Source of the DNA: Chiloscyllium plagiosum
Lineage: Eukaryota
NCBI RefSeq assembly: GCF_004010195.1
Contig: NC_057718.1
Location: forward strand, 6,815,267 to 6,835,266
Direction of reading: 5' to 3'
Length of the DNA stretch: 20,000 nt
The notes beneath the pieces are model-generated. The model ran no database searches. It was not told where the DNA came from and saw only the letters and a program-made list of their open reading frames with translations. Positions within the stretch are counted from its first letter, which is position 1. The number at the start of each line of letters is the position of its first letter. Shown one piece after another: positions 682 through 20,000 of this stretch. A program made the translations under genes and the position numbers.

Positions 682-846
682 CATCAGGAATGATGAAGGG
701 CTCCTGCCCGAAACATCGATTTTCCTGCTCCTCGGATGCTGCCTGACCTGTCCTGCTCCTCGGATGCTGCCTGACCTGCTGTGCTTTTCCAGCACCACTC
801 TAATCTTGGTTCTAATCTCCAGCATCTGCAGTACCCACTTCCGCCT
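682..846 (+). mobile_element. Penelope-like pLTR-derived short element with degenerate hammerhead core
   Basis: aTGATGA-A-GGGC-tcct-GCCC-GAAA-catc (690-717), then family body tcctgctcctcggatgctgcctgacctgctgtgcttttccagc...ccagcatctgcagtacccactt shared with many other loci in the window. Internal 28 bp tandem duplication at 723-778. Confidence 0.7.
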
Positions 847-847
847 T

Positions 848-1420
848 GGAGAAATTGTTCCCAATAGGGGCGGCACGGTGGCTCAGTGGTTAGCACTGCA
901 GCCTCACCGCGCCAGGGTCCCAGGTTTGATTCCAGCCTTGGGGGAACTGTCTGTGCGGAGTTTGCACATTCTCCCCGTGTCTGCGTGGTTTCCTCCGGGT
1001 ACTCCGGTTTCCTCCCAAAGATATGCAGATTAGGTGGATTGGCCACGCTAAATTGCCCATAGTGTTAGGTGCATTAGTCAGAGGGAAATGGGACTGGGTG
1101 GGTTACTCTTCGGAGGGTCGGTGTGGACTTGGTGGGCTGAAGAGCCTGTTTCCACACTGTAGGGAATCTAATCTAATCATTAAAGGATCGACAATGAGTG
1201 GCCACAGATTGAAAGTGATTTGCACGCATTGTAGATGTGATGTGAGACAAATAACTTTTCAGACAACAAGTGGTTCATGTTTGACAAACACTGTCTGGAA
1301 GTGTGATGGAGTGAGGTTCAACTGAGGCATTTATTATTTGAATTGACACGTTGTGTGGGGAAAAGATGGGTGAGTGGTGCTAAGTTATAGTGCTCATTCA
1401 AGAGCTGGAGAAAGTGTGTA
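848..1420 (+). mobile_element. Old CR1 LINE 3' fragment split by an HE1 SINE
   Basis: EKLFP (848-866) continues after the SINE as KGSTMSGHRLKVI..DVRQ.., resembling the CR1 ORF2 C-terminus (LFP..SRTRGH.LK..RRNFF). Confidence 0.55.
867..1178 (+). mobile_element. HE1-type tRNA-derived V-SINE, full length
   Basis: Head GGGGCGGCACGGTGGCTCAGTGGTTAGCAC (A box), GGTTTGATTCC (B box), core GGAGTTTGCACATTCTCCCCGTGTCTGCGTGG, LINE-like tail GCCTGTTTCCACACTGTAGG, then (AATCT)n. Confidence 0.9.
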
Positions 1421-1457
1421 ATAGCAGCCTGCTGTGCAGTAACCACCTCTGTGATTC

Positions 1458-1932
1458 CCATTAACATTTTGATTCCCTTGTCTAATAAGAATCCACCAAT
1501 TTCCACCTTTAAAATATTTACTGACCCTGTACCCACAGCTTTCTGAGGTAAGGAGTTCAAAGTAGCACAATCCTCAGAGAGAAAAAAATAAATTCCTCAA
1601 CTCTGTTCGGGCGGCACGGTGGCACTGCTGCCTCACAGTGCCAGAGACCCGGGTTCAATTCCTGCCTGAGGCGACTGACTGTGTGGAGTTTGCACATTCT
1701 CCCCGAGTCTGCGTGGGTTTGCTCCGGTTTCCTCCCACAGTCCAAAGATGTGCAGGTCAGGTGAATTGGCCATGCTAAATTGCCCATAGTGTTAGGTAAG
1801 GGGTAAATGTAGGGGTATGGGTGGTTTGCGCTTCAGCGGGGCGGTGTGGACTTGTTAGTCTGAAGGGCCTGTTTCCACACTGTAAAGTAATCTAATCTAA
1901 TCTGTCCTAAAATGGCACACACTTATTTTAAA
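1458..1932 (-). mobile_element. CR1 LINE 3' fragment split by an HE1 SINE
   Basis: Minus-strand translation NSLPQKAVGTGSVNILKVEIGGFLLDKGIK matches the CR1 ORF2 end. Possible TSD tctgttc (1602-1608) / tctgtcc (1901-1907) around the SINE. Confidence 0.65.
1609..1902 (+). mobile_element. HE1-type SINE with A-box deletion
   Basis: GGGCGGCACGGTGGCACTGC head lacking tcagtggttagc, B box GGTTCAATTCC, V-domain core, (AATCT)n tail. Confidence 0.9.
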
Positions 1933-2004
1933 ATTCTTTCAAATGTTTTTATACTGTGGCCCCCGGTCGTCTCCTCTGCCCTGAAGCTCTTCAGCCTTTC
2001 ACTC

Positions 2005-2182
2005 TGCCTCCCCTCCCTTCCCCCCACCTCCTGTCCCACCCCCACTCTCCTATTTATCTCTCAGCCCGCTTGAGCGCCCCCCAACATTCCTGATGAAGGG
2101 CTTATGCCCGAAAAGTCGACTCTCCTGCTCCTCAGACACTGTCTGACCTGCTGTGCTTTTCCAGCGCCACATCTTTTGACTC
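2005..2182 (+). mobile_element. Penelope-like 3'/pLTR fragment with near-intact hammerhead core
   Basis: C-rich leader, then CTGATGA-A-GGGC-ttat-GCCC-GAAA-aGTC (2090-2117) and the family body. Confidence 0.7.
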
Positions 2183-2189
2183 ACTCTCT

Positions 2190-2885
2190 TGAGCTGTGCC
2201 AGTTTTTGGGGTGAAGATACACTCTCACTCCTGTTCAGGATGCAGTTCAAAGATGTTAACCCAGCAACATTGAAGGGACAGTGATATATTTCTAAGTCTG
2301 GATGGTGAATGGCTTAGAGAGAATCTTGCAGACAGTGGTGTTCCCATGCGTCTGCTGCTCTAGTCCATCCAGATGGTAGATGTCAATGGTTTGGAATATT
2401 CTGTTATAGGAATCTTGGTGAGTTGTTGCTGTGCTTAGTCATTGAGTCACAAGGCATGGTCTAACCATTCCATGCCAAACATAATGCCAAACTAATCCCA
2501 CCTGCCTGTCCCTGGCCCACCTAGTACATAGAACACTGTGCTCCTGTATCAGTGCTGGAGGGGGTGAATGTTGAACAGAGGTGGTGGATGGAGTGCTAAT
2601 CAAGTGGGCTCCTTTGATCTGGATACTGTTGAGTTTCTTGATTGCAGTTGGAGCTGCCCTCCTCCAAGCGAGTGAAGATTATTTCTTCAGACACCTGACC
2701 TGTGACTTGTAAATGGTGGACTGGCGCTGGGGGGTCACGAGATGATTGCTTGCTACCGTATTCCTAGGCTCTGACCTGCTCTTGTAGCCAGAGCATTTAC
2801 ATGGTTGGCCCATTTCAGTCCCTGGACAATGATAGCCCCTGGAGGTTGATGGTGGGGGATTGAATATTGGCAATGCTATTGAATG
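2190..2885 (-). mobile_element. Degenerate CR1-group (Zenon/L2-like) LINE RT C-terminal fragment
   Basis: Minus-strand HLVTPQRQSTIYKSQVR resembles the LTPQ.LSTIYKAQVR..MEY motif. 2260-2400 is the reverse complement of 7660-7800. Confidence 0.65.
2436..2520 (-). mobile_element. Short CR1/HER1 3' tail fragment inserted in the Zenon/L2-like LINE
   Basis: tccatgccaaacataatgccaaac matches the CR1 tail seen at 13620-13685 and 14219-14243. GAGTCA tail motif at the left end. Confidence 0.55.
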
Positions 2886-3195
2886 ACTCACATAAGCATC
2901 ACAGATAGAGGTAGAAATTCTAATTATGTCCTTTGATTCATTTCAGTGAACGAAAAGGTTGCTCAAGTATCTGAGGTTATCAAACACAAATTTGTGAAGT
3001 TGTTTTGTGAGATAGGGTCCAAAAGCGTCTTTTACGTGATGTGACAATGGTTATGTTATCCCTCATAATGAAAGAAACTAAACCTGGACATTGTGATATT
3101 GAAGAATCTGACAGACATTAATGATTGTTGATTACCATGTCCAAGCATTCCATTTACAGGCACTTAAATGTCTGGGCTGATCTTAGTTTGTTAGA

Positions 3196-3391
3196 TCCAC
3201 CTATTGCATTCTCAGCTACCTTCCTCCCAGCCTCACCCCCTTCCACTTATCTGCCCATCCCCAAGGCTCCCAACCTCATTCCTGATGAAGGGCTTTTCCT
3301 GGTCCTCGGATGCTGCCTGACCTGCTGTGGTTTTCCAGCACCACTCTAATCTAAACTCTAATTTCCAGCATCTGCAGTACCCACTTTCGCC
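3196..3391 (+). mobile_element. Penelope-like 3'/pLTR fragment with half of the hammerhead deleted
   Basis: CTGATGAAGGGCTTTT (3282-3297) joins directly to cctggtcctc, so GCCCGAAACGTC is missing. The rest matches 682-846 and 5131-5261. Confidence 0.7.
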
Positions 3392-3671
3392 TAGTTGATA
3401 CAAACGAGAACAGCAGAGTGTCACACATGAACTGAGCTGCGGTAAGTAGCTGCCCTCAGGTCACATGCCATATACAGAAACGATATCAAGCGCTTGTTTC
3501 TCCAAGCTCTGCCAATATCCTGACCGTGTGAAATGGGCTTCACTTAGAAACCAGAGAATGCTTGTGTTGATGGCGAGTAAGTTTGTCAAAGAACCACAGT
3601 GAGCAATGGGCGGAAGGACAATGAGCCACTTGCTTTGCATTCCATATTTTTACATTAACTGAGTGACAGGA

Positions 3672-3849
3672 AGGCATCGTACTGTCATGATTCTTCAGCT
3701 GATCATCCAGAGAAATCATAAGTTCAAATCCCACTCTGGTAATTTCAGAATCTGAATTATGGTCCAAATGTGACCCTCACATTGTGAGAAGATTGTAAAA
3801 ATTGAACTGGTTCACTCCTGTTTTTTTGGGAAGGAAATTTGTCATCCTA
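3672..3849 (+). mobile_element. Degenerate tRNA-derived SINE (non-HE1 family)
   Basis: B-box-like AGTTCAAATCCCAC (3721-3734), then motifs ctggttcact...gggaaggaaatttgtcatcc that I recall from a shark SINE family. Confidence 0.4.
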
Positions 3850-3850
3850 A

Positions 3851-4047
3851 AGGTTTGCATGTGGAATGAACTTCCTGAGGAAGTGGTAGATGTGGGCACA
3901 CTTAGAACACTTAAAAGACACTTGGATAAGTACATGAATAGGGAAGGTTTGGAGGGACATGAGCCAGGAGCAGTCGATTGGGACCAGTTCAGTTTGGGAA
4001 AGCTGGTAGGCATGAATGAGTCCGTGCTGTATGACTCCATAACTCTA
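3851..4047 (+). mobile_element. CR1 LINE 3' end
   Basis: WNELPEEVVDVGTLRTLKRHLDKYMNREGLEG, then tail gtgctgtatgactccataactcta. Confidence 0.8.
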
Positions 4048-4069
4048 CAACACAGGCTCATATTTGATT

Positions 4070-4539
4070 GTAGGAGCATAGGAACAGGAATAAGCTCTTC
4101 ATTCCCTCAAGACTGTCCACCATTCAATGAGATCATGGCTGATCTGTGAGGGGAAAGTGAGGACTGCAGATGCTGGAGATCAGAGCTGAAAATGTGTTGC
4201 TGGAAAAGCGCAGCAGGTCAGGCAGCATTCAAGAAGCAGGAGAATCGACGTTTCAGGCATGAGCCCTTCTTCCTGAAGAAGGGCTCATGCCCCAAACGTC
4301 GATTCTCCTGCTTCTTGGATGCTGCCTCATCTGTGACCTAACTCCATATACCTGCCTTTGGCCCAGATCCAATAATATTTCAGTTTAATAAAAAAATTAA
4401 CAACTGATCCAGCATCTACTGCCCTTTGTGGAAGAGATTTTAATCATCTCCCACCCTTTGTGTGTAGAAGTGTTTCCTAGCATCTCTCATGAATGGACTG
4501 ACCCTAATTTTTAGACTATGTCCATTAGTTCTAGAGTTC
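4070..4539 (-). mobile_element. CR1 LINE 3' end interrupted by a hairpin element
   Basis: 3' UTR motif ccattcaatgagatcatggctgatc (compare 15987-16010) and ORF2-end-like sequence resuming after 4329. Confidence 0.7.
4150..4328. mobile_element. Head-to-head (hairpin) Penelope-like pLTR element with 8 bp TSD
   Basis: Arms 4220-4272 and 4275-4327 are 53 bp inverted repeats with 3 mismatches. Flanked by atctgtga at 4142-4149 and 4329-4336. Confidence 0.8.
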
Positions 4540-5094
4540 AGGTATGCATCACATCTGGTCTCTAATATGTCCTGGCATGCTTCTTAGTTCCATTAAATCA
4601 CTGCACGAAATGGTAACCATTTAAGGAGAAGATCCATCACCGACGGCAAGGGCAATAATTGCCAACATTGCCTGTGACCCTCATGTTCCAGTGGAGGTGA
4701 TGCTGTGGAATCATGTAGTGTGGGAGAGCTGAAGAGGGACATGATGGATATAAATTGGAGATGATAGTTACAGGCGATGAATAGTGTGTGGGAACGTTCA
4801 GTCTCTGAGCTGACAATGCATCTGCAAAAACCTGTAAATTCCAACATCACTATAAACTGTGCATCTCTGATGAAAACTGATCCTGCTGGTTACATTCCTT
4901 CATGTGTTGAGAGTGAGGACAAGCCAAGTGAAAGAAGTTCAACAAGGGTTGAGCTGAAGCAGTTGCTCTGATGTTCAGTTAGTCAGCAGACCTCTCGCTA
5001 GAAGACAAATCTCCCATTTGTAGTGTATTGAGATTGAAACAGAATCATAGGCTTTCACTTATAAAGTGAAGTGTGTTGGCTGTTCTTAACAGAG

Positions 5095-5565
5095 TAAACA
5101 AACAGGAGGCTGGAAAAACAGGAGGCTGGATTCCTGATGAAGGGCTTTTGCCCGAAACGTCAATTTTCCTGCTCCTTAGATGCTGCCTGTCCTGCTGTGC
5201 TTTTCCAGCACCACTCTAATCTTGACTCTGATCTCCAGCAACTGCAGTACCCACTTTCGCCAGGCTAGAAGAATATGGCAAGCCAGACAGCATCAGGAGT
5301 TGGAGAAAGTGAGGACTGCAGATGCTGGAGATCAGAGTTGAAAAGTGGAAAAGCACAGCCGGTCAGGCTGCATCCAAGGAGCAGGAGAACTGATGTTTTG
5401 GGCTTAACCCATTCATTAGGAATGTGATCATCAACTCCTCTTGAATCCTAAAGAAGGGTTATACCTGAAGCATTGACTTCTCCACCTCCTGGTGCTGCCT
5501 GACTGACTGTCTTCTTCCAGCCTCTTGCTAGTCTGCTTTGCATTCCAGCATCTACAGTTCCTTAT
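5095..5565. mobile_element. Nested cluster of four Penelope-like pLTR pieces
   Basis: Older inverted pair (minus arm ~5095-5130 plus 5262-5305; plus arm ~5446-5565) with younger copies at 5131-5261 (+, flanked by aggctgga/aggctaga) and 5302-5425 (-). Confidence 0.65.
5134..5161 (+). ncRNA. Minimal type I hammerhead ribozyme core (Penelope-type), intact
   Basis: CTGATGA-A-GGGC-TTTT-GCCC-GAAA-CGTC: both conserved boxes, 4 bp stem II, palindromic ACGT in place of stem III, GUC triplet. Stem I pairing is weak. Confidence 0.6.
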
Positions 5566-5611
5566 ATCTGTAAGCACGTTTTTAGCAGACTGGCTTTCAC
5601 TGCAAATCTGG

Positions 5612-6077
5612 ATAGACAATAGACAATAGACAATAGACAATAGACAATAGACAATAGACAATAGACAATAGACAATAGACAATAGACAATAGACAATAGA
5701 CAATAGACAATAGACAATAGACAATAGACAATAGACAATAGACAATAGACAATAGACAATAGACAATAGACAATAGACAATAGACAATAGACAATAGACA
5801 ATAGACAATAGACAATAGACAATAGACAATAGACAATAGACAATAGACAATAGACAATAGACAATAGACAATAGACAATAGACAATAGACAATAGACAAT
5901 AGACAATAGACAATAGACAATAGACAATAGACAATAGACAATAGACAATAGACAATAGACAATAGACAATAGACAATAGACAATAGACAATAGACAATAG
6001 ACAATAGACAATAGACAATAGACAATAGACAATAGACAATAGACAATAGACAATAGACAATAGACAATAGACAATAG
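5612..6077. repeat. Perfect heptamer tandem repeat (ATAGACA)66 plus ATAG
   Basis: 462 bp from 5612 to 6073 equals 66 units with no visible variant. It explains the spurious (LLSIVYC)n ORFs. Confidence 0.97.
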
Positions 6078-6208
6078 GTGCAGGAGTACCAGCATGCTGT
6101 TAGCCTTCTTCACTACCTGCTGTACCTGCATGCTTACCTTCATTGACTGGTGTACAAGAACACCCAGATCTCTCTGTACTGCCCCTTTACATAAATTGAT
6201 TCCATTTA
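6074..6208 (-). mobile_element. Internally deleted, 5'-truncated CR1 remnant whose tail is the heptamer array
   Basis: ataggtgcaggagta matches 15944-15958, and 6089-6208 matches 16565-16684 (LCKGAVQRDLGVLVHQSMKVSMQVQQVVKKAN). Confidence 0.85.
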
Positions 6209-6580
6209 CCCCAATTGATTGACCCCAATCAAGCACCATCAGGAACCCACTTTAAATACCTGGAAACATCTGTGCTTTGTGACTACCTCTCCTTACATTA
6301 ATTATGTGTGCAAATTTTCATGTATGCTAGTCACATCTAAGTGGTGATTTGGCCCTGCCTGCGACTGCTCTTCCTCACATGAGACTTTGTGAAGTCAGGC
6401 TTGAGAAATCACCCAGCCCATGATCTGGAGCTGAATGAATCATCTCCAGCAGGAGGTGACTGAAGGACACTGGTCTGAGACATGGAAAAGCCATCATCCA
6501 ATGATTTCCCACATTGAGAAATACACAAGATTTCTTGGCACTTGGCACTTCTCTTTGACCAGAAATAGCCTCTTACTCAA

Positions 6581-6832
6581 CCCTTTAGAACTGAGATGAG
6601 GAGGAATTTCTTCAGCCTGAGGGTGGTGACTCTACGGAACTCATTGGCACTGTGGAGGCCTAGTCATTGAGTGTATTTAAGACATTGATCGATAAGTTCC
6701 TGATTAGTGAGGGAATTAAAGTCTACAGACAGAAGGCAGGAGAGTGGGGTTGAGAATCATATTGGTCATGATTGAATGGTGGAGCAGACCTGATGGGCAG
6801 AATGGCCTAATTCTGCTCCTATATCTGATGGT
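6581..6832 (+). mobile_element. CR1 LINE 3' end
   Basis: PFRTEMRRNFFSLRVV start and 3' UTR gattgaatggtggagcagacctgatgggcagaatggcctaattctgctcct. Confidence 0.8.
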
Positions 6833-6939
6833 GGTATTATCTTTGGCGGAAGTCCAGGGTACAAGTATCACTATAGGAATGACTTGGCTCCCCACTGTCC
6901 CATCCGCTCAGAACCACAGCTCAGGGTGGTATTGCGAGA

Positions 6940-7090
6940 ATTGAGAATTGGAGGTGGTGGGTGTGGGGAGGATGGGGTGAGGGAGAGATGGGGGAAGGAT
7001 CATAGCCTTTGGAGGGAGAGATTGAGAGGGGTGGGGACTTGGAGATCAGGGTCAGGGAGAGAAATGATGATCAGGGATCAGGACAGGAAT
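6940..7090. repeat. Purine/G-rich low-complexity tract with short (GATCAGG)-like repeats
   Basis: Runs of GGGGA/GAGA and repeated gatcagg/ggtcagg units at 7044-7088. Confidence 0.5.
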
Positions 7091-7299
7091 TCCACAGTCC
7101 GCATTTTGCATCCAGGAATGATCAGTTGTGCAGAGGTTGGTGTAAGTGTTTGACTTCTTTTAATGGAGCAGACATTCAGGGTTAGTTTGTCAGTGGACTT
7201 GTACTTCAGAACTTACTGCACCCCTAGTTAAGCCATTCCAGTCCAGTAAAACATTGACATTTACCCGCCAATATAAGCAATTGCCCACAGGTGTCCTGT

Positions 7300-7840
7300 G
7301 CCCCATTAACAGTAACAGAATTGTACTCCATACAATCTTAATCACATGGCCTGGTATACCCCTCACTCAAAAATTGCCTTGAAGCAGGGGATCAACCCTG
7401 GTTCAATGGAAAAATGCAGAACATCATGCCAGGAGCAGCATTAGGCATACCTGAAATCTATCTGGGGAAGCTACAAAACAGGATGATTCACATGCTAGAC
7501 AGTGGAAGCAACAATCGATAGACAGCGCTAAGTGATTCCAAAACGAACAGATCATCTTGGAGTTCTGCGGACCTGCCATATCTAGTCATACTTGAAATGT
7601 TAACTCTTTTTTTTCTCTCTACAGATGCTGAGTTACTCCAGTATTTTCTAAGTCCTGTGATAGCACCTTCCAAACCCATCAGTCCGACCATCTCAGAGAA
7701 CAAGAGAAGCAGATACATGGGAATGCCATCCCCTCCAGGTTCCCCTCCAAGACACTCACCATCCTAACTTGGAACTATATTGCCATTCCTTCATTGTTAC
7801 TGGAACTCCATCCATAAAAACATTGTTAGTGTCCTTGCAC
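7300..7840 (+). mobile_element. Zenon/L2-like LINE fragments (EN-RT linker 7300-7590; C-terminus 7660-7840)
   Basis: ggggatcaaccctggttcaatg (GDQPWFN) linker motif and agcaccttccaaaccca...cagatacatgggaa...cactcaccatcctaacttgg, the same family as 2190-2885. Confidence 0.6.
7593..7650 (+). mobile_element. Small degenerate Penelope-like pLTR fragment
   Basis: gaaatgttaactct...tctctctacagatgctg...ccagtattttct resembles 13866-13931. Confidence 0.45.
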
Positions 7841-7924
7841 ATATATTAAATACATGCACAATCAGTAATAGCTCTGAATCAGAACGTTAATGTAAGAAAG
7901 GAACTTGTTAAATTTATGATCACA

Positions 7925-9090: not shown

Positions 9091-9110
9091 CTAAACTCCA
9101 GCTGACTTCG

Positions 9111-9220
9111 TCTGATCAAGGAGTAGTGGTCTGAAAGCTTGTGATTTCAAATAAACCTATTGGCCTATAATCTTGTGACTCCTGACATAGTCCACCCTAG
9201 TCCAACACAAGCATCTCTAC
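9111..9220 (+). mobile_element. Second Penelope-like pLTR family with a degenerate hammerhead (AAGCTT type)
   Basis: CTGATcA-A-GGAG-tagtg-gtct-GAAA-GCTT followed by AATAAA (9149-9154). Confidence 0.5.
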
Positions 9221-9526
9221 AGTACTGCCTCACTGCACCAGGGCCACAGATTCAATTCCAGCCTCGGGCAACTTGTCTGTGTAGAGTTTGCACATTCTCC
9301 CCGTGTCTGTGTGGGTTTCCTCTGGGTGCTCTGGTTTCCTCCCACAGTCCAAAGATGTGCAGGTCAAGGTGGATTGGCTGTGCTTAGTTGCCAATAGCGT
9401 TCAGGGATGTATAGGTTAGGAGCATTAGTCAGGGGAATGGGTCTGGGTGAGTGACTCTTTGGAAGGTCAGTTTGGACTTGTTGAGCAAAATGGCCTGTTT
9501 CCACACTGTGGTGATTCCATGATTCT
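9221..9526 (+). mobile_element. HE1-type SINE, 5' truncated
   Basis: B box gattcaattcc, core GAGTTTGCACATTCTCCCCGTGTCTG, tail ggcctgtttccacactgt...gattccatgattct. Confidence 0.88.
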
Positions 9527-9550
9527 GTATAGATTTCAGCAAGTCCAGAT

Positions 9551-9640: not shown

Positions 9641-11186
9641 GTGAACCCAGCTATGTAGGTGACACCCAGTGTAGAAACCTACTGAGATCCCACGACTGAA
9701 GGGTCAAGAATCAGTGGTGACTTTGAGAGCTGCTGACAAAGCAATGCCTCCCTGGTCCAGGAGGAGACAGCTTCTCAAGGAGCAGACAGTCTTTCTGGCA
9801 AAGTGCCACCTCCTCATACATTGGTCCTCAGAAACTTCCAAGAAAATAGACCGTAATCTTGGTAATGAGGAAGGCAAGTGGAATATTGGTCTTTATTTCA
9901 AAGGGGTGGAGTTTAAAAGAAGGGAGGTTTTGCTAAAACTATGTACAGCTCTAGTCAGATCATATACTGTGATCAGATTTGGGCCCTTTATCTAATGGTG
10001 TTGGAACCAATCAAGAGAAGGTTCACTGGGCTGATACCAGACATGGAGGTTCTGCCTTATGAGGAGGGGTTCACTAGATTGGGCCTATACTTGTTGGAAT
10101 GTAGAAGAATGAGAGGCAACCGTATTGAAACATACAAGGTTCTTAGAGGACTTGACAGAGTAGATATGAAAAGGTTGTTTCCCCTTGAGGAAGAGTTTTG
10201 GACCAGACGGAATAACTTCAGAATAAGAAGTCACACATTTAATTTGATTTAGTTTATTATTGTCATGCATACTGAGATATAGTGAAAAGTATTGTGTTGT
10301 GTGCTATCGGAGCAAACCATGCTTTATTTATCAGGATATTAAAACAGAATGCAGAATATCATGTTACAACTACAGAGAAGGTGCAGAGAGGGACCAACTC
10401 TAATATATGAGAGGTCTGTTCCTAAGTCTGAAAACTGCTAGGAAGAAGCTGTTCTTCAATCTGTTGGCATGTGTTTTCAAACTTTTATATCTTCTGCCCA
10501 ATGGAAGAGGGTGGAAGAGATTATAACTGGGGTGGGAGGGGTCTTTAATTATATTGGCTGCTTTCCCGAGGCAGTGAGAAGTGTAGATGGAGTCAGTGGT
10601 GGGGAGGCTGGTTTGTGTGATGGACTGGGCTGTGTTCACAACTCTCTGTAATATCTTGTGGTCTTGAGCACAGCAGTTGCTATATCGATCCGTGATGCAC
10701 CCAGATAGGATACTTCCTATGGTGCATCGATAAAAATAGGCAAGAGTCATTGTGGAGATGTTGGATTTCCTTAGCCTTCTGCGAAAGTAAAGGCATTGAT
10801 GTGGATTCTTGACAAAGGCATCAACGTAGATTGACCAGGACAGAATGTTGGAGCTATTAACTCCTAGGGACTCAATGCTGTCAACCACCCCCACCTCAAC
10901 ACCATTGATACAGACAAGGCCATGTCCCCCACCACGCTTCCTGAAGCTGATGACCAGCTCCTTTGTTTTGCTGATGTTGGGGGAGAGATTGTTGCCTTTA
11001 CACTGTACCAATAAGCACTCCATATCTTTCCTGTAGTATGTCCTGTTGTTTGAGATTTGACCCACTACAGTGATATCATCAGCAATTTGTAAGTGGAGTT
11101 AGAGCTGAATTTGACCACACAGTTGTGAGTATATAAAGAGTACAGCAAGGGGCTGAATACACAGCTTTGTGGGGCATCGGTGTTGA

Positions 11187-11402
11187 AAAGTGTGGCGCTG
11201 GAAAAGCATAGCCGGTCAAGCAGCATCCAACGAGCAGGAGAGTCGACGTTTCAGGAATAAACTCTTCATCAGGAATAATGAAGGGTTTATGCCTGAAACG
11301 TTGATTGTCCTGCTCCTCAGATGCTGCCTGACCTGCTGTGCTTTTCCAGTGCCACACTTTTCGACTCTGATCTCCAGCATCTGCAGTCCTCACTTTCTCC
11401 TA
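11187..11402. mobile_element. Head-to-head (hairpin) Penelope-like pLTR element with ~15 bp TSD
   Basis: 85 bp inverted arms 11185-11269 and 11278-11362. Flanks gggcatcggtgttga (11172-11186) and gggcactggtgttga (11403-11417). Confidence 0.8.
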
Positions 11403-12296
11403 GGGCACTGGTGTTGAGGTTATCGTGCGGTCTGTGGGTCAGGAAGTCGATGATCCAGTTGCAGAGGAGGGGGGCAGAGTCTTCGGTCTCAGTGTTTGGT
11501 TTGAGTTTGGTTGAGATTATGGTGTTGGGCAGAGCTAAAGTCAATAAATAGGAGTCTGCAGTAGGTTATCCAAATGCTCCAGGGATGAATATTGGGCCTG
11601 GGAGATGGTGTCTGCCAGGGATCTGTAATTGTAGGTCAATTGTAGTGGGTCAAGGTAATCTCGGAGACTGGAGTTTGATGTGTGCCATTACTGACCTCTG
11701 AAAGCACTTCATAACAATGGATGTCAAAGTCACTGGGCGGTCGTCATTCAGGCACGCTGCCTGATTTTCCTTTGGCACCAGGATGATAGTGGTCATCTTG
11801 AGGGATATGGGAACCTCATATCAGGGTGAGGAGAGATTAAAGATATCTGCAAATCCTCTCACCAGCTGGTGCATACAGGCTCTGAGTTCACAGTCAGGGA
11901 CTCCAGCTGGGCCAGTCACTGTCCATGGGTTCACCCTTGAGAAGGCTGATCTGATGGCTGTGGTGGTGACGGTGGGTACGTGGGCTCCCGAGGGAAGGTG
12001 ACATTACTTCACTGACCTTCTGTTCCAATGAGGACAGAATGCATCCAGCTCATCGGGGAGGGATGGATTGTTGCCAGCGATTCTAATTGACTGCGCTCTG
12101 TAGCTCGTTAAACCATGTAAGCCTTGCCACAGTCGATGGGTGTTTCTCTGGTTAGTCAAGGACTCTGGTTTAGTCTGGGATTGCATCTGAGCATGCCTGA
12201 TGGCCTTGTGAAGGTCATACTTGGATTTTCCGTATAGGTTAGGGACACCCAACCTGAACACCTCAAACCTGAACTTCAGTAGGGTGTGGATTTCCC

Positions 12297-12601
12297 AGAT
12301 TTAGATTAGATTAGATGCCCTACAGTGTGTGGAAACAGGCCCTTCAGCCCAACCAGTACACACCGACCCTCCGAAGAGTAACCCACCCAGACCCATTTCC
12401 ATCTGACTAATGCACCTAAAACAATGGGCAATTTGGCACGACCAATTCACCTGACCTGCTCATCTTTGGACTATGGGAGAAACCCATGCAGACACGGAGA
12501 ATGTGCAAACTCCACACAGATAGTCACCGGAGGCTGGAATTGAACCTGGGATCCTGGTGCTGTGAGGCAGCAGTGCTAACCACTGAGCCACTGTGCCACC
12601 C
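12297..12601 (-). mobile_element. HE1-type SINE inserted in Rex1
   Basis: Reverse complement of head (gtgctaaccactgagccactgtgccaccc), core (gaatgtgcaaactcc) and (AGATT)n tail. Confidence 0.9.
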
Positions 12602-12926
12602 TTCATCCAGAGTTCATCCATGGTTTCCTGTTGGAGAATACTCAGATTGATTTCTTTGTTGCGCAGTCCTCTACACACTGACTGATGAACTCTGTGACGG
12701 TAGTGGCATATTCATTTAGGTTGGTTGATGAGTTCTTGACTACGAACCAGTCCACCGACTCCAAGCAGTCATATAAAAGCTTATCCATGTCTGACTTTCA
12801 GACAGAGATGAAGAGAAATTGCTTCTTTCAGGGGACAATGCATCTGTAGAATTCTTTACCACAGAGAGCTGTTAGGCTGGGTCGTAAAGGGTTATGAGGA
12901 TAAGATACGAACATATACTTAAGGAT

Positions 12927-13233
12927 AATCATAGAATAGAATCCTTATAGTGTGGAAACAGACCATTCGGTCCATGCTGACGCTCCAGAGAGCAGCCCGA
13001 TCACCCTACCCTGTCTTTCCATGGCTAATGCACTTAACCTACACATCCCTGGGCACTATGGGCAATTTCCCATGGCCAATCTACCTAACCTACATATCTT
13101 TGGACTGTGGGAGGAAACTGGAGCACCCACATAGACATGAAGAGAACATGCAGTCACACAGACAGTCACCTGAGGGTGGAATCGAACCTGGGTCTTTGGT
13201 GCTGTAAGGCAGCAGTGCTAAACACTGAGCCAT
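12927..13233 (-). mobile_element. HE1-type SINE inserted in the CR1 3' end
   Basis: ggaatcgaacc B box, gtgctaaacactgagcca A box, tail aatcatagaat...gtgtggaaacag. Confidence 0.85.
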
Positions 13234-13528
13234 CTGATTATAACCACTAGTGAGCTATGATCTTATTAAATGGCAGAGCAGACTCAATGTGTCGAGTGGT
13301 CTGCTTCAGCTACAACATTGTATGGTCTTATGGTGGATGACAATCAAGTACAATCAGCAGTTACAAACCTGAGCACTCACTCACTAACTCTCACTTGTTC
13401 ACAGCAAAGCTGTTCATGTTTTAATGTTTCAGAGTTTGCTCTCTTCTCTTGGTAGCTGGGATGTTCTCAATGAATGGGTCCATATAGAATAGTTAGTGAT
13501 CCAGTGATAAGTGTTCCTAATGACGAAT

Positions 13529-14330
13529 ACTGGGGTATACGACCAATATAATAATGATGGGGAGTTAATAAATTGTGAACAGAACCATGAAGTGCAAAGG
13601 AAAGTGATATATATATAAGTTTGGGATCATGTTTGGCATGGACTGGTTAGAGCGATGGGTCTGTTTTCGTGTTGTATGACTCTATGTTCTTTTTGACTTC
13701 TAGATTTCACTCACTTAATCAAACCTGTTTTACATTATATCCTTATTAAATACTTCTCAGAAGTTATTTGCTTTCTAAAAAAAAAAATCAGTCCATGGAA
13801 CTATCTCTCCCGCAGTCCTGAGGCAACTGTCCTATAGGATGTTCTGAAGAAGAGTCACTGGACCCAAAACGTTCGCTCTGCTTTCTCTCCACTGATGCTG
13901 CCAGACCTGCTGAGCTTTTCTAGCAATTTCTGATTTTGTCCAAGAAGTTATGCGAGGCTTGGGTTTTTTTTAAAGCAAGTAAAATTCTGAAAAGTATTTA
14001 GTAAAGATAGAATGTAAAAAAGGTTTGATTAAGTGAGTGAAATCAAGAAATCAAAAGGAACATAGAGTCATAGAGTCATAGAAACTGGGGTATAAAACCA
14101 ATAAAATAATGATGGGGAGTTAATAAATTGCAAATAGCACCACAGTACAAAGGAAAGTGAGATATATATGAGTTTGGGATTATGTTTGGCATGGAAACAG
14201 GCCCTTTGTTCCAACCAGTCCATGCCAAACATAATCCCAAACTCATCATATATCTCGCTTTTCTTTGCATTAATGGTTCTATTTGCAGTGTATTAACTCC
14301 CCATCTTTATTGTATTGGCCTTAGACCCCA
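13529..14330. repeat. Complex inverted duplication A-B-C-spacer-C'-A-B'-A'
   Basis: A 13529-13642, direct copy 14084-14195, inverted copy 14219-14330. C 13675-13787 is inverted at 13964-14072. Perfect inverted blocks of 24 bp (13703-13726 / 14021-14044) and 28 bp (14168-14195 / 14219-14246). Confidence 0.9.
13842..13940 (+). mobile_element. Older Penelope-like pLTR fragment in the inverted-repeat spacer
   Basis: CTGAAGA-A-GAGTC-actg-GACCC-aAAA-CGTT followed by gatgctgccagacctgctgagcttttctagc. Confidence 0.6.
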
Positions 14331-14476
14331 TCATTCACAACTATGTCCACTGCTGCCTGGACACTAAGCTTGGGTACTCTCATTTCCACACCTCTCCATC
14401 TCTCTATCTCTCCGTCCACATGAACACACTCCTTAAAACTTACCACTTTGATGAAAGCTTTGGTCACCTAATCTAA

Positions 14477-15660
14477 TGATGACACAAAAAGTGGGGGTAA
14501 TATTGAGGATGGTGTCAGGCTACAGTCTGAGATTGATCAGCTGGTAATTTGGGCAGAGCAATGGCAGTTGGACTTTCCCCTGATAAATGCAAGGTGATGC
14601 ATTTTGGGAGGTCTAATAAGGAAAGGATATACAAAATGAATGATAGATCCCTAGGGAGTATTGAGGAACAAAGGGACCTTGGTGTACAAATCCATAGATC
14701 CCTGAAGGTGTCAACACAAGTAGTCAGGGTAGGAAAGGAGGCATATGGGATGCTTCCCTTCATTAGCCAGGTATACATTATCAGAGCAAGGAAATCTTGT
14801 TACAAATTTATAGAACATTAGCTTGGTCACAGATGGAATCCCGTATACAGTTCTGATCACCGCACTACATCATAGCACTGTAGAGGGTGCAGAGGAGATT
14901 CACCAGGATATTGCCTGGGCTGAAAAGTCTCAGTTATGAAGAGAGGCTGGATAGGCTGGGTTTGTTTTCCCTGGAGCAGAGGAGCCTGAGGGTGGGTCTG
15001 ATCAAGGTGTACAAAATTATGACAGGATAGGCAAGCATGTCTAAGACCAGAGAGTAGGAGTTGAAGTTGAGGAGTAAGTGTTTTAGAGAGGACCTGAGAA
15101 GGATTTTTTTTTTCCTCAGAGGGTGGTAAAGATATGGAAGGTGCTGCCTGAGAGGGTGGTGGAGGCAGGTATTTCTCAGCATTGAAGAAGCATCGGGATG
15201 AACACTTAAATGCCAGACCACGGTAGGCTATGGACCAAATGCAGGTTAACAGGATTAGTGGAGAATAAATGCTTATTGTTGAAAGGTGTGGTGCTCGAAA
15301 AACACAGCCAGTCAGGCAGCATCCAAGGAGCAGGAGAGTCGACATTTCAGACATAAGCCCTTCATCAGGAATGAGGCTTGTGGGCCAAGGCGGCTGAGAG
15401 ATAAATGGGAGGGGGCTCCGACTGGAGGAAAAGTAGCGGAGAATGTGATAGTTAGATGAAGATGGGGTTGGGGGGGGGGGAGGGAGGTGGTGATAGGTCA
15501 GAGAGGAATGTGCAGCAGATGGACAGATAAGACCATTCAAGACGGCTCCCAGGTCATCTCCTTAGCCCTGAAACTCTTCAGCAAAGCCTTGATGTTTGTT
15601 GGTCAGCATAGACATGGTGGGCTGAAAGGCCTGCTTCCACGCTGAATGAGTCTCCATGAC
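14477..15660 (+). mobile_element. CR1 LINE, 5' truncated at the DDTK motif, degenerate
   Basis: DDTK, PDKCKVMHFGRSN, EEQRDLGVQIHRSLKV, SYEERLDRLGLFSLEQRSLR, and 3' UTR gacatggtgggctgaaaggcctg. Confidence 0.85.
15278..15545 (-). mobile_element. Penelope-like 3'/pLTR fragment inserted in the CR1 3' UTR
   Basis: Minus-strand CTGATGA-A-GGGC-ttat-GTCT-GAAA-tGTC (15341-15368) with C-rich leader and family body. Confidence 0.7.
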
Positions 15661-15932
15661 GAACATTCGGTTTGGATCTTAGTGCCAAATTTTGCTTTAA
15701 TGCATCTGTGTAACACCATGGGATAGTTCATTACTTCAAGGGCACTGTATAATGTTGTTGTTGACTGCATTTTCAGGAAGTAGATTGAAGAGTGACCAGA
15801 TCAAGGTGTTTAAAGTGTTAAAACGATTTAAAAGGCTTGTCAAAAAGGAGTTATTTTCTCTGATGTGGTGGGGGTGGGGAAGAGAAGAACAAAAGGACAT
15901 AACCCTGAAATTGCCCTCTCAGCAGTGAGAAA

Positions 15933-18747
15933 TACAATAGACAATAGGTGCGGGAGTAGGCCATTCTGTCCTTCGAGCCAGCTCCACCATTCAGTATGGT
16001 CATGGCTGATCATCCACAATCAGCATCCTGTTCCTGCCTTATCCCCATAACCCTCAATTCCACTATCCTTTAGAGCTCTATCCAACTCTTTCTTGAAAGT
16101 ATCCAGAGACTTGGCCTCCACAGCCTTCTGGGGCAGAGCATTCCACACACCCACCACTCTCTGGGTGAAGAAGTTTCTCCTCAACTCTGTTCTAAGTGGC
16201 CTACCCCTTATTTTTAAACTGTGTCCTCTGGTTCGGGACTCACCCATCAGCGGAAACATGCTTCCTGCTTCCAGAGTGTCCGATCCTTTAATAATCTCAT
16301 ACATCTCAATCAGATCCCCTCTCAGCCTTCTAAACTCAAGCGTATACAAGCCCAGTCGCTCCAATCTTTCAGCGTAAGATAGTCCCACCATTCCAGGAAT
16401 TGACTTCATGAACCTACACTGCACTCCCTCAGTAGCCAGAATGTCTTTTCTCAAATTTGGAGATCAAAACTGCACACAATATTCCAGCTGCGGTCTCACC
16501 AGGGCCCTGTACAGCTGCAGAAGGACCTCTTTGCTCCTATACTCAATTCCTCTTATTACGAAGGCCAGCATGCCATTAGCTTTCTTCACTGCCTGCTGTA
16601 CCTGCATGCTCGCTTTCATTGACTGATGTACAAGAACACCTAGGTCTTGTTGTACTGCCCCTTTACATAACTTGACTCCATTTAGGTAGTAATCTGCCTT
16701 CTTGTTCTTGCCACCAAAGTGGATAACCACACATTTATCCACATTAAACTGCATCTGCCATGCATCCGTCCACTCACCCAGTCTGTCCAGGTCACCCTGT
16801 ATTCTCCTAACATCTTCCTCACATTTCACCCTGCCACTCAGCTTTGTGTCATCAGTAAATTTGATAATATTACTTTTAATACCTTCATCTATATCATTAA
16901 TGTACATTGTAAAAAGCTGCGGTCCCAGCACTGATCCCTGCAATACCCTACTGGTCACCGCCTGTCATTCCGAAAGGAAGCCATTTATCACTACTCTTTG
17001 TTTCCTGTCAGCCAACCAATTTTCAATCCATGTCAGTATTTTGCCCCTAATACCATGTGCCCTAACTTTGCTCACTAATCTCCTATGTGGGACTTTATCA
17101 AAGGCTTTCGGAAAGGCCAGGTATACTGCATCCACTGAATCTCCCTTGTCCATCTTCAGAGTTAAATCCTCAAAAAATTCCAGAAGATTAGCCAAGCATG
17201 ATTTCCCCTTCATAAATCCATGCTGACTCTGATCTATCCTGTTACTAATATCCAGATGTGTTGTAATTTCATCCTTTATAATAGACTCCAGCATCTTTCC
17301 CACCACTGTGGTCAGACTAACTGGTCTATAATTCCCTGTTTTCTCTCTCCCTCCTTTCTTTAAAAGTGGGACAACATTAGCCACCCTCCAATCCGCAGGA
17401 ACTGATCCTGAATCTATAGAACATTGGAAAATGATCACAAATGCATCCACGATTTCTAGAGCACCTCCTTCAGTACCCTGGGATGCAGACCATCAGGTCC
17501 CGGGGACTTATCAGCCTTCAGACCTAACAGTCTCTCCAACACCAATTCCTGGCAAATATAAATTCCCTTCAGTTCAGGTCCTTNNNNNNNNNNNNNNNNN
17601 NNNNNNNNNNNNNNNNNNNNNNNNNNNNNNNNNNNNNNNNNNNNNNNNNNNNNNNNNNNNNNNNNNNNNNNNNNNNNNNNNNNNNNNNNNNNNNNNNNNN
17701 NNNNNNNNNNNNNNNNNNNNNNNNNNNNNNNNNNNNNNNNNNNNNNNNNNNNNNNNNNNNNNNNNNNNNNNNNNNNNNNNNNNNNNNNNNNNNNNNNNNN
17801 NNNNNNNNNNNNNNNNNNNNNNNNNNNNNNNNNNNNNNNNNNNNNNNNNNNNNNNNNNNNNNNNNNNNNNNTTCCCTTATTCAACTGAAATATTGTCACT
17901 TGCGAATCTACCCTCTCCCTCTCAAACTGCAGATTGAAGCTTATTGTATTGTGGTCACTACCTCCTAATGGCTCCTTTACCTCGAGGTTCCTGATCAAAT
18001 CCGGTTTGTTGCACATCACCAGATCCAGAATTGCCTTCTCCCTGGTCGGCTCCAGCACAAGATGTTCTAAGAATCCATCTCAGAGGCACTCCACAAACTC
18101 CCTTTCTTGGGGTCCAGTACCATCCTGATTCTCCCAGTCTACCTGCATGTTGAAATCCCCCATAACAACTGTAGTAATATCTTTGCGACAGGCCAATTTC
18201 AGCTCCTTATTCAATTTATACCCTACATCCAGGCTACTGTTTGGGGGCCTGTAGATAACTCCCATGAGGGCCTTTCTACCCTTAGAATTTCTCAGCTCTA
18301 TCCATACTGACTCTACATCCCCTGGTTCTAGGTCCCCCCACGCAAGGGACTGAATATCATCCCTTACCAATATGGCCACCCACCCCCTCTGCCCGTCGGT
18401 CTGTCCTTACGATAGCACGTTTGCTTTGAATATTCATTTCCCAGGCCCTGTCCACTTGAAGCCACATCTCCGTTATCCCCACAACATCGTAACTGCCAAT
18501 TTCCAAATGAGCCTCAAGCTCATCCACCTTATTTCTAATGCTTCGTGCATTCATATATAATATTTTTATTTGTTACCCCCCTACCCTTCCTATCAATCCC
18601 TATTTCACTTGACCTTATGGCATGATCCTTTTTTGAGTTTTCTGCTCCATTGATTCTGTTATCTTTCTTGACTTCTCTTGTTCTAACTTACCCTTTAACT
18701 TCCTTCATAAACTTCCAGTTTGTCCCCTCCCGCTCTGCTATTCCGCT
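15933..18747 (-). mobile_element. Young HER1/CR1 LINE, near-complete ORF2 (APE endonuclease plus RT), disabled, ORF1 absent
   Basis: NARSIRNK, VGITEMW, GVIYRPP, MGDFN, ILDLV, SDHN (APE). KSPGPDG, NYRPVSL, QHGF, KAFDKVPH, QGSVLGP, FTDDTK (RT). Stops at ~18080, ~16965 and ~16464, frameshifts at ~18370-18420 and ~17460. Tail (TGTCTAT). Confidence 0.95.
17584..17871. other. Assembly gap (288 N) inside the young CR1
   Basis: Run of N. Confidence 0.99.
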
Positions 18748-19156
18748 ATACACGGAATGTTTCAGGCCAATGGAAATCGGGAGAAATCTCCAGTCCCCCG
18801 CCCCCACGCCGCCCACCCCACCCCCCTCCAGCAGCCAAAAGTTTAGACCATCAGCTGTCAAGACTGAGAGGGACAGATTTTGATCACTGAGATCATCAAG
18901 GACTATGATGTAAAGGCTGAAAGTGAAGTTGTGGTGCAGATCAGGCACGTGTTATATCGTGAAAGCTCAGGGTCAGAGAGTTGAATTCCTTCCTCTATTT
19001 CTTTGTTCCAAATAAAAATTGGATATCTGAGGAGCAGGCTGTAAGAGCAGAGTTTGAATAAGAAATCCATCCCTGCATTCCCTGCATATTTGGTTAAGTG
19101 AAGCCTGCTCTTAGTTATTGGACAGCCTGACATTTTATCACCTTCCTCATTGACAG

Positions 19157-19300
19157 GCTATTATCTTCCAACAATACAAGCTCAGAAATCTGCGGATTAA
19201 AGGAAGAGGTTGGACAGAGGTTGAGGAACTTGGGAAACATCTCAACAAACTCAGCCATGAGACATGCTGTTGCTGCTGGAAATATTCTGTGTTTGATTGA
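19157..19300 (+). CDS. Candidate terminal coding exon AIIFQQYKLRNLRIKGRGWTEVEELGKHLNKLSHETCCCCWKYSVFD*
   Basis: Branch-point-like CCTGAC (19126-19131), pyrimidine tract, acceptor ccttcctcattgacAG|G, 47 open codons in phase 0 to TGA. The sequence is non-repetitive. Confidence 0.45.
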   Translation, partial: AIIFQQYKLRNLRIKGRGWTEVEELGKHLNKLSHETCCCCWKYSVFD

Positions 19301-19524
19301 CTGATCAGGCAGCATTATCTAAAAATAGGGCCAGTTCTTCCCGCTGTTTAATCAGTATTGTAAACCAGATAATTTGTATAGACGCAATGGGCCAAAGGAC
19401 CTCTACTATACTGCATGATTCCATTTGTACAGGGATCTGGGGTGGGTGCAGATTTGGTTTAGCTTTGCCTGGACAGACTCAACACCCCAAAGGACCTCTT
19501 CTGTACTGTATCATTCAATGATCT

Positions 19525-19685
19525 AGTCACCGTCATATTGTTATTTCAGGGAGCTGCTGTGTACACACATGTTGCAATTTTTCTTGAATTAAACTAGTGG
19601 CTGCACTTCAAAAGTGAATCAGTGTGACTTGGGATTTCCTGAGGAAGTGAAGGCCACATATAAATGCCCACGCTTTCTTCCTTCT
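19525..19685 (+). mobile_element. Degenerate 3' part of a Deu-domain (SacSINE1-like) SINE
   Basis: cacttcaaaagt...cttgggatttcctgaggaagtgaaggccacatataaatgc..ctttctt resembles the L2-derived tail of these SINEs. Confidence 0.5.
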
Positions 19686-19694
19686 CTTCATCTA

Positions 19695-20000
19695 TGAGAA
19701 AGTGAGGACTGCAAATGCTGGAGACCAGAGTTGCAAAGTGTGGTGCTGGAAAAACGTGGCAGGCCAGTCAGCATCGGAGGAGCAGGAAAATTGACGTTTC
19801 GGGCATAAGCCCTTCTTCAGGAATGAGACTGGTGTGCCAAGTGGGCTGAGATAAAAGGTGGGGCGAGGAATTTGGGGGAGGGGCGCTGGGAATACAATAG
19901 GTGGAAGGAGGTGAGGGTGAGGGTGATAGGCCGAAGAGGGGGTGGGGGCGGAGAGGTCGGGAAGAAGATTGCAGATCAAGAAGGCGGTGCTGAGTCCGAG
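19695..20000 (-). mobile_element. Penelope-like element 3'/pLTR region, running off the window end
   Basis: Family body plus the longest C-rich leader in the window, with a hammerhead core at 19793-19820. Confidence 0.75.
19793..19820 (-). ncRNA. Minimal type I hammerhead ribozyme core (Penelope-type), intact
   Basis: Minus strand CTGAAGA-A-GGGC-TTAT-GCCC-GAAA-CGTC. Confidence 0.6.

Follow-up and report, generated by a model that had tools for sequence, protein, structure and literature searches.

Minimal hammerhead ribozymes (min-HHRs) of metazoan Penelope-like elements (PLEs) are defined by the core boxes, an unpaired nucleotide after A9, the pair G10.1-C11.1 and the lack of a helix III hairpin (PMC4209133). 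They have been described in fishes (Neptune, Poseidon and Xena elements), in reptiles, in the coelacanth (about 4,000 motifs) and in Xenopus (about 9,000); most are dispersed and single, but pairs lying close together on opposite strands also occur. Their activity in vitro is low and required either dimeric or trimeric constructs or an engineered, extended helix III to be seen (PMC4209133). Here we analysed a stretch of 20,000 nt from the genome of Chiloscyllium plagiosum (contig NC_057718.1, positions 6,815,267 to 6,835,266, forward strand; this whole stretch is called the window) that is dense in short repeats with a hammerhead-like motif. These loci are very probably 3'-terminal tail insertions of PLEs that have a CX4CX2C linker and, at the C terminus, a GIY-YIG endonuclease, with every insertion bringing along the min-HHR of the PLE terminal repeat.

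Two further papers describe how such elements insert. PLE insertions show 5' truncation, an adjacent inverted copy that is also 5'-truncated and a tail of 30-40 bp that is often present at one end only, and the Neptune PLEs have a CX2-5CxxC linker (PMC8557442). In work in vitro on a PLE of Anolis, an AC-rich stem-loop contained two adjacent internal sites at which reverse transcription began, and both DNA strands were cleaved and extended; cleavage by the hammerhead was protein-assisted and dispensable for insertion, and RNA-seq ends were not found at the cut site (PMC11167929). All the features that we saw in the window fit these published descriptions of PLEs and min-HHRs; the kind is already described and the copies are further members of it in another host. 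In a literature search the three families found here (F1-F3, below) were not traced to any publication.

The pattern TGAWGAAGGGCNNNNGCCCGAAAC was matched eight times in the window with at most three mismatches, against 0.01 matches expected, and none of 200 shuffles reached eight. The matches start at 691+, 2091+, 4250-, 4274+, 5135+, 11276+, 15344- and 19796- (the sign gives the strand). Six further motif loci were more decayed or belonged to other families: decayed copies were found at 11245-, 5395- and 5448+, the copy at 3282+ had lost the 3' half of the motif through an internal deletion, and the copies at 13844+ and 9112+ had the same architecture as elsewhere with different helix sequences. 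A motif was present at every coordinate listed in an earlier note on this DNA, and its description of helix II as GGGC/GCCC with variable loops agrees with our reading (TCCT at 691; TTAT at 2091, 15344 and 19796; TCAT at 4274; TTTT at 5135). In only two of the 14 motifs (5134-5161, and 19793-19820 on the minus strand) were the core residues, helix II and the ACGU palindrome all intact, the remaining copies being substituted, often with CpG-type changes (C3 at 690, G12 at 4273, 15.2 at 2090 and 15341). Most window copies are thus decayed; they are dead retrocopies, and no function is expected at these loci.

The exact 28-mer CTGATGAAGGGCNNNNGCCCGAAACGTC, which is matched in the window by 5134-5161 only, occurred 21,180 times in the 3.56-Gb assembly (10,535 times on the forward and 10,645 times on the reverse strand), and the reversed 28-mer, used as a control, did not occur in the genome at all. 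The density of motifs was 14 in 19.3 kb of the window as compared with about 7-8 in 60 kb of arbitrarily chosen DNA of the same genome (L027-L032; L-numbers are labelled stretches of this genome used as comparison copies), and the window is therefore several-fold motif-richer than this small sample. These 60 kb and the window together make up the 80 kb of DNA, not chosen for the motif, that is used below.

The motifs share with the published min-HHR (PMC4209133) the catalytic boxes, the unpaired nucleotide between A9 and 10.1, the pair G10.1-C11.1, the palindromic 15.2-16.2 segment and the short helix I, and also the occurrence as dispersed copies, some in opposite-strand pairs, at massive copy number. 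They differ in helix II, which has 4-5 bp here and 7-8 bp in the min-HHR of Schistosoma, and their helix I of 2-4 bp lies at the short end of the range (2 bp in Drosophila virilis), while the count of exact 28-mers far exceeds the numbers of motifs given for coelacanth and Xenopus (PMC4209133). The earlier identification of the motif as a minimal type I PLE hammerhead was borne out by CUGANGA, the extra nucleotide after A9, G10.1-C11.1, GAAA and the palindromic 15.1-16.1 segment.

Three families could be separated. F1, with 12 window loci, has helix II GGGC/GCCC, ACGU at 15.1-16.1 and a predicted cut after GUC; F2 (13841-13939) has helix II GGGUC/GACCC with the loop ACUG, also ACGU at 15.1-16.1 and the triplet GUU; and F3 (9105-9215) has helix II GGAGC/GCUCC in its better copies, the loop AGU, AGCU at 15.1-16.1 and the triplet CUU or CUA. 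The loci at 9112 and 13844, previously regarded as decayed copies of the one element, are members of these other families, as their helix sequences differ. The families were enlarged with genome copies and parsed at fixed offsets (48/51 F1, 14/14 F2 and 12/15 F3 copies; six copies with indels were dropped), since a MAFFT alignment of all three families shifts F3 by one column and an alignment of F1 and F2 cannot hold the fifth pair of F2. The genome copies of F2 and F3 were chosen by likeness to the decayed window copies, which accounts for the change G12>A in 11 of the 14 F2 copies.

The core was well kept in this set. A CUGANGA-type box was found in 40/48 F1, 9/14 F2 and at least 6/12 F3 copies, the other F3 copies mostly showing CpG-type decay of G8, and GAA was kept in 41/48 F1, 3/14 F2 (the 11 with G12>A being CpG decays) and 10/12 F3 copies. 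Position H17 was C in 46/48 F1 copies, U in all 14 F2 copies and U or A in all 12 F3 copies, the extra nucleotide after A9 was an A in 48/48, 12/14 and 12/12 copies of F1, F2 and F3, and 10.1:11.1 was paired (G:C or G:U) in 45/48, 13/14 and 12/12. The palindrome read ACGU in 38/48 F1 and 6/14 F2 copies (the rest of F2 mostly being the CpG decays ATGT and ACAT) and AGCU in 10/12 F3 copies.

The helices, on the other hand, changed between families while pairing was retained. From F1 through F2 to F3 the pair 10.3:11.3 was G:C, G:C and A:U, the pair 10.4:11.4 was C:G, U:A and G:C, and 15.2:16.2 was C:G, C:G and G:C; in helix I, 1.1:2.1 was G:C, A:U and G:C, 1.2:2.2 was A:U, A:U and U:A, and 1.3:2.3 was a U.U mismatch in F1 (38/48 copies), C:G in F2 and G:C in F3. 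Beyond four positions the pairing in helix I stops. The catalytic boxes are therefore fixed across the families, and helix I, helix II and the palindromic 15.2:16.2 change by compensatory substitution. Covariation in stem II and the existence of a stem I, both of which the earlier note had proposed as decisive for its hammerhead, were both observed, the former with three different Watson-Crick pairs at 10.4:11.4 and a change at 10.3, the latter as a short stem of 2-4 bp that covaries at 1.1 and 1.2. When pairs were counted in the F1+F2 alignment, 80% of cells were paired and the covariation was 0.140 against a shuffled mean of 0.115, with 2 of 500 shuffles as high, a figure that is no probability because the F1 and F2 sequences are related; in all slid registers of the alignment the covariation was 0.076 or lower. 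The pair 2.1:1.1 was CG in 21 and UA in 9 of the sequences in this alignment.

The identity of the host element was read from genome copies that extend further upstream. There the motif was preceded by about 210 nt of C-rich untranslated sequence and this, in turn, by the end of an open reading frame (ORF) that reads ...CHRRNCKTC...IIYCIRCSRCGLLYIGETGRLLAERFREHL...LGTLQPQGINVDFNSF, where CHRRNCKTC is the linker; a YIGETGR motif was seen in the translations of the ORF ends. The distance from the GIY-YIG ORF end to the motif downstream of it was about 210-250 nt in genome copies belonging to F1 and F2. The Pfam GIY-YIG model PF01541 scored 25.6 bits on L020:1501-1869:- (cutoff 22.6) and 21.5-21.9 bits, just below the cutoff, on L018 and L012. 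For the older F1 lineage of the type present in the window (loop UUAU), endonuclease remnants were found upstream of the motif in L032 (E = 2.8e-9), and for F2 in L052 (E = 6e-4). The association with a Penelope ORF, another point on which the earlier hammerhead proposal had been staked, is thus seen elsewhere in the genome. A C-terminal GIY-YIG domain with a CxxC-type linker is also the arrangement given for the Neptune and Nematis clades (PMC8557442, PMC11167929), the PLE here being known from its ORF end.

The ORF end gave 91,655 first-look candidates in the genome, and identity to the query was 92-100% for each of the 150 that were scored. Over their 3' 545-580 nt, six long copies were 94.7-96.7% alike, which indicates that this family is young. 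Near-identical 31-letter words of the young family were also present in the sequencing runs X1-X19, which carry four organism codes, with shares of words between 0.32 and 0.81; the young family, or close relatives of it, is common to several hosts. The visible parts of the ORFs in the long copies are an N-terminal stretch (...ERSVLSKGLTF...) and the linker between reverse transcriptase (RT) and endonuclease. Open frames of 870-960 amino acids in these copies were rejected as artefacts of N being read as X.

Several observations weigh against the assignment to PLE tails with a hammerhead. No ORF was linked to F3, and each of the six long copies has N for the 1.9-2.5 kb preceding the endonuclease, leaving the RT domain out of sight. 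A second tail or hammerhead on the same strand upstream of the ORF, the trait of a pseudo-long terminal repeat (pLTR), was found in none of these six copies, which may be 5'-truncated; the partial-tandem terminal repeat described for endonuclease-positive PLEs (PMC8557442, PMC11167929) was missing from the long copies examined. Helix I has just 2-4 bp, with the U.U mismatch at 1.3:2.3 in most F1 copies. No Rfam hammerhead model matched at the gathering threshold, nor did any at E<=10, whether on the 20 kb or on a slice of 101 nt with an intact copy in it, so the covariance-model check proposed in the earlier note came out negative; the models concerned (Hammerhead_1, Hammerhead_3, HH9, HH10 and Hammerhead_II) have the same catalytic boxes but presuppose a closed helix III, and min-HHRs are by definition without one. 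ViennaRNA favoured for F1 an extended hairpin (UGAUG/CGUCG) at -11.4 kcal/mol over the hammerhead secondary structure at -0.7 kcal/mol, and cofolding of dimers gave stacking of hairpins rather than a hammerhead, nearest-neighbour energies being unable to judge this fold. Published min-HHRs, finally, cleave poorly in vitro (PMC4209133), and in Anolis cleavage needs protein, insertion does not need cleavage, and the cut site showed no RNA-seq ends (PMC11167929).

Most of the points concerning the fold would equally be expected if the motif were a structured RNA signal, a hairpin or a protein-binding site, in which the boxes are retained but catalytically irrelevant. The missing Rfam match, the predicted minimum-energy hairpin of F1, the very short helix I and the low activity of PLE min-HHRs in vitro (PMC4209133) all favour such a signal, as do the Anolis PLE, whose hammerhead mutants still insert and which has no RNA-seq ends at its cut site (PMC11167929), and the Naiad PLEs, which thrive without hammerheads (PMC8557442). 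However, all 11 core positions are kept in most copies of three families of which F1 and F3 have tails that cannot be aligned, and G10.1-C11.1 and the extra nucleotide after A9 are traits specific to hammerheads. The swap at 15.2:16.2 in F3 is also informative, because it breaks the hairpin (G8.G and U7.C) and preserves the self-complementarity of the tetranucleotide that a dimeric helix III requires, which favours a dimeric hammerhead over a plain hairpin. The motif has no helix III hairpin of its own and 15.2-16.2 is palindromic, so that two motifs are predicted to be able to form helix III together. We therefore regard a mere RNA signal as rather unlikely and retain the PLE hammerhead as the better explanation of the motif.

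The arrangement of the copies also corresponds to that of PLE insertions. Three head-to-head inverted pairs were present in the window (4250-/4274+, 11245-/11276+ and 5395-/5448+), with the motifs facing each other and the tails pointing outward, and the inverted-alignment scores of the pairs were 38-50 as compared with a null 95th percentile of 11 and a null maximum of 25. Because of these three pairs the 14 motifs correspond to 11 insertion events, and the estimate of about 14 loci in the earlier note holds for motifs and fails for independent loci. The same structure was found twice in the arbitrarily chosen DNA, at L028:6776-6982 with a target duplication of about 13 bp and at L032:6557-6780 with one of about 15 bp. 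The target duplications flanking the pairs indicate that each pair was inserted as one unit. Sub-threshold matches to Rfam microRNA families (E<=10, 20 kb) resulted from the inverted pairs being scored as hairpins, and microRNA genes at these places were accordingly rejected.

The first pair (4151-4330, F1) consists of a minus arm at 4151-4273 with the full tail and a truncated plus arm from 4274 to about 4322; its motifs are at 4250-4273(-) and 4273-4300(+, G12>C) and its target duplication is about 8-9 bp (ATCTGTGA). In the F1 pair at 11176-11403 the minus arm (about 11190-11272) has the short 3' end and the plus arm (11276-11400) the full tail, and the flanking duplication is about 15-16 bp (GGGCAYYGGTGTTGA). 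The third pair, at 5303-5575, is a decayed F1 pair with a minus arm at 5303-5424 (motif 5395-5418) and a plus arm at about 5448-5575; a perfect (ATAGACA)n microsatellite of 66.6 copies (5612-6077) comes right after it.

The single F1 copies are of two kinds. Solo and tail copies begin close to the motif: the unit at 5130-5262(+) starts with ATTC, 4 nt before C3, and has the intact motif 5134-5161 and a full tail, and the copy at 675-846(+) has the motif 690-717 (C3 and 16.2 mutated, loop TCCT), a tail that runs to about 846, a micro-inverted head (675-690) and an internal tandem duplication of 28 bp (723-778). The others continue upstream into the 3' untranslated region (3'UTR). Among these, the copy at 2011-2182(+) has about 80 nt of C-rich 3'UTR upstream of the motif 2090-2117 (15.2 C>A) and lacks the tail extension, stopping at the short 3' end, and the copy at 3199-3392(+) has the full tail in addition to its truncated motif starting at 3282. 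On the minus strand, the copy at 15278-15447 has the motif 15341-15368, with helix II and 15.2 decayed, and the short 3' end, and the copy at 19692-19899 has the intact motif 19793-19820 (N7 = A, loop UUAU) and the full tail.

The F2 solo unit (13841-13939, plus strand) has helix II G(A)GUC/GACCC with the loop ACUG, ACGU at 15.1-16.1 and U at H17; its G12 has decayed to A and its 3' end is the short one. It lies at the centre of a foldback-like structure (13500-14361) with inverted arms at 13675-13783/13964-14072 and 13500-13591/14270-14361 and direct repeats at 13529-13642/14084-14195, and sub-threshold microRNA-family matches were obtained within this structure at 14152-14262. The F3 copy (9105-9215, plus strand) has helix II GGAGY/GGUCU, AGCU at 15.1-16.1, U at H17 and a tail unrelated to that of F1.

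The 3' ends fall at two positions. In F1 the inverted arm ends about 8-17 nt past an AC-rich stem-loop (...CCAGCACCAC) and the forward arm is 35-45 nt longer, and in F3 the inverted arms were 35-45 nt shorter than the forward arms as well. Over all copies the target-site duplications span 8-16 bp and the one-sided extension 30-45 nt. Two 3' end positions, near an AC-rich stem-loop downstream of the hammerhead, resemble the ends of the Anolis element, and, like the copies here, endonuclease-positive PLEs in general combine 5' truncation with a tail at one end only and an inverted partner at the 5' end (PMC8557442, PMC11167929). The place of the hammerhead differs: it overlaps the start of the ORF in the Anolis element (PMC11167929) and follows the ORF stop by about 210 nt in this genome. 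Among the long genome copies, L008:1267-1872 and L025 (1621-1810 versus 4571-4760) have an inverted tail with hammerhead fused to a 5'-truncated forward copy, and the forward copy of L008 begins within the endonuclease domain and has its 3' end at the 5' edge of the expected hammerhead position.

These observations can be combined into a mechanism, which we propose by analogy with the Anolis element (PMC11167929). The RNA of the element would be copied by target-primed reverse transcription from internal sites downstream of the hammerhead, near the AC-rich stem-loop, and priming by both target strands would give rise to inverted pairs and to the one-sided tail. Judging from its sequence, the hammerhead would fold as a dimer through the palindromic ACGU or AGCU and cut after GUC, GUU or CUU; its activity is likely to be low, protein-assisted and dispensable for the insertion itself. 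Reads from poly(A) single-cell libraries, a library type uninformative on cleavage, showed no excess of read starts or ends along the stretch. These reads covered both strands about equally, and 96 of 100 ran into unlike flanks, which suits embedded copies.

The copies are either 5'-truncated or solo units of about 100-130 nt, and their 5' ends were not evenly spread. Of the 13 F1 insertion events in the 80 kb, eight begin at the 5' edge of helix I or no more than about 4 nt from it, namely those at 675, 4151-4330, 5130, 5303-5575, 11176-11403 and L028:3313 and the pairs in L028 and L032, and the claim that several copies begin at or near the ribozyme was thus well founded. The remaining five reach into the 3'UTR (2011, 3199, 15278-15447, 19692-19899 and L032:9108-9985). 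A start at the hammerhead edge was also seen in 6 of 9 F2 loci and in most F3 loci; all these counts are curated and come from small samples. Automated classification of the upstream homology was only partial, as old extended copies reached scores of 14-17 with a panel of the young family and the null had a maximum of 16. A 7-13-fold step in read depth at L021:5013 was rejected as a measure of the 5' end, being confounded by the older subfamilies, with more than 8% divergence in the 3'UTR, that make up most of the copies.

Such discrete starts in all three families are what one would expect if the short units were a self-propagating, non-autonomous lineage, retrozyme-like or SINE-like (SINE, short interspersed nuclear element), which was in essence the earlier proposal of non-autonomous pLTR derivatives. 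A preprint (10.64898/2026.07.22.740005) points in the same direction in that it derives animal retrozymes, including those of one cartilaginous fish, from PLE terminal repeats. However, reverse transcription that begins internally, close to the 5' end of an ordinary transcript, would yield the same units, the sequence variants just 3' of the motif are common to short copies and to copies joined to ORF ends, and in the small sample available no diagnostic substitutions were private to the short copies. Being 5'-truncated, with a tail at one side only and an inverted partner at the 5' end, the copies have the structure of ordinary PLE insertions.

Animal non-LTR retrozymes, reported by Cervera and De la Pena in 2020, are said to consist of tandem units with a type I hammerhead and to be related to PLE terminal repeats. 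They form tandem arrays with units of about 170-400 nt and circular RNAs, whereas the units in the window are dispersed or inverted and never tandem. No head-to-tail arrays of the hammerhead unit were found in the window, where Tandem Repeats Finder lists the internal 28-bp duplication, a 16-bp duplication and the (ATAGACA)n repeat, and the arrangement that defines retrozymes is therefore absent. We consider a self-propagating lineage of short units distinctly unlikely, and since their variants also occur joined to ORF ends, the sequences do not require a non-autonomous lineage separate from the PLEs.

Within the PLE explanation the discrete starts allow a more specific and tentative suggestion. 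Because they recur in three families, and because the inverted arms lack the 35-45-nt tail, the hammerhead might mark the true 5' terminus of the reverse-transcribed RNA, an end that transcription initiation or RNA processing would create immediately upstream of helix I. In that case the short units (about 100-130 nt) would represent full cDNAs of a short leader, made from the first internal initiation site and not random truncations. We put this forward as a speculation that is more probably wrong than right by a wide measure.

The window also contains other retroelements, and these bear on the question of whether the repeats could be the tails of a long interspersed nuclear element (LINE) with an apurinic/apyrimidinic (AP) endonuclease, or of its SINE partner, with hammerhead-like boxes arising by chance. 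A LINE-type RT is present on the minus strand at about 16.4-18.4 kb (RVT_1, 58 bits at 16965-17492 and 37 bits at 16464-16964), together with a remnant of an AP endonuclease at 18080-18406 on the same strand (21.7 bits, below cutoff), the two being separated by a run of 288 N (17584-17871). Several copies of a transfer RNA (tRNA)-derived SINE occur as well, and the motif copy 675-846 adjoins the head of one of them. In the genome, however, the motif tail is contiguous with the end of a GIY-YIG ORF and not with an AP-endonuclease LINE, the tails of the SINE and the LINE differ in sequence from it, and the boxes are common to three families with compensatory changes. An origin from a LINE or SINE is thus extremely improbable; the LINE RT in the window is not a PLE RT, nor is it the partner of the hammerhead tails, which we continue to assign to PLEs. 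The statement that the window holds no RT and no GIY-YIG ORF has to be split: no remnant of a GIY-YIG or PLE ORF was found in the window by tblastn with pieces of the endonuclease and linker, but the RT is there. Window matches of one tblastn query were discarded as a PLE remnant, being due to a SINE inserted in the query.

The LINE remnant as a whole extends over 16020-18406 on the minus strand, and a strong negative GC skew was observed over 16-19 kb. A direct repeat of 120 nt (6089-6208/16565-16684, 88% alike) has its second copy within the LINE RT region, and the copy at 6089-6208 is therefore probably a LINE fragment. The SINE is represented by five copies with a head like GGCGGCACGGTGGCTCAGTGG, at 868-1170, 1600-1890 and 9220-9517 on the plus strand and at 12327-12601 and 12953-13232 on the minus strand; one of them adjoins the hammerhead copy 675-846 and another comes after the F3 copy 9105-9215. 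An open frame of 232 codons (10400-11098, minus strand) gave a weak Pfam match to ALKBH8_N (20.6 bits; cutoff 21).

Taken as annotation, the result adds another host, with a very high copy number, to a pattern that is already described and carries little weight beyond that, and it shows that a large share of the short interspersed repeats in this 3.56-Gb genome are PLE tails with min-HHR motifs. For specialists on PLEs it provides a record from three families of discrete 5' ends at the hammerhead edge, of two 3' ends and of tails that are missing from the inverted arms, and these three features bear on the unsettled mechanism of transposition and on the purpose of the hammerhead. The model of internal initiation has so far been shown only in vitro and for one lizard element. 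If the tentative reading of the 5' ends were true, the hundreds of thousands of copies in this genome would be an in vivo record of a model with internal initiation and priming by two strands, and the hammerhead motif would have a role at the 5' end of the element.

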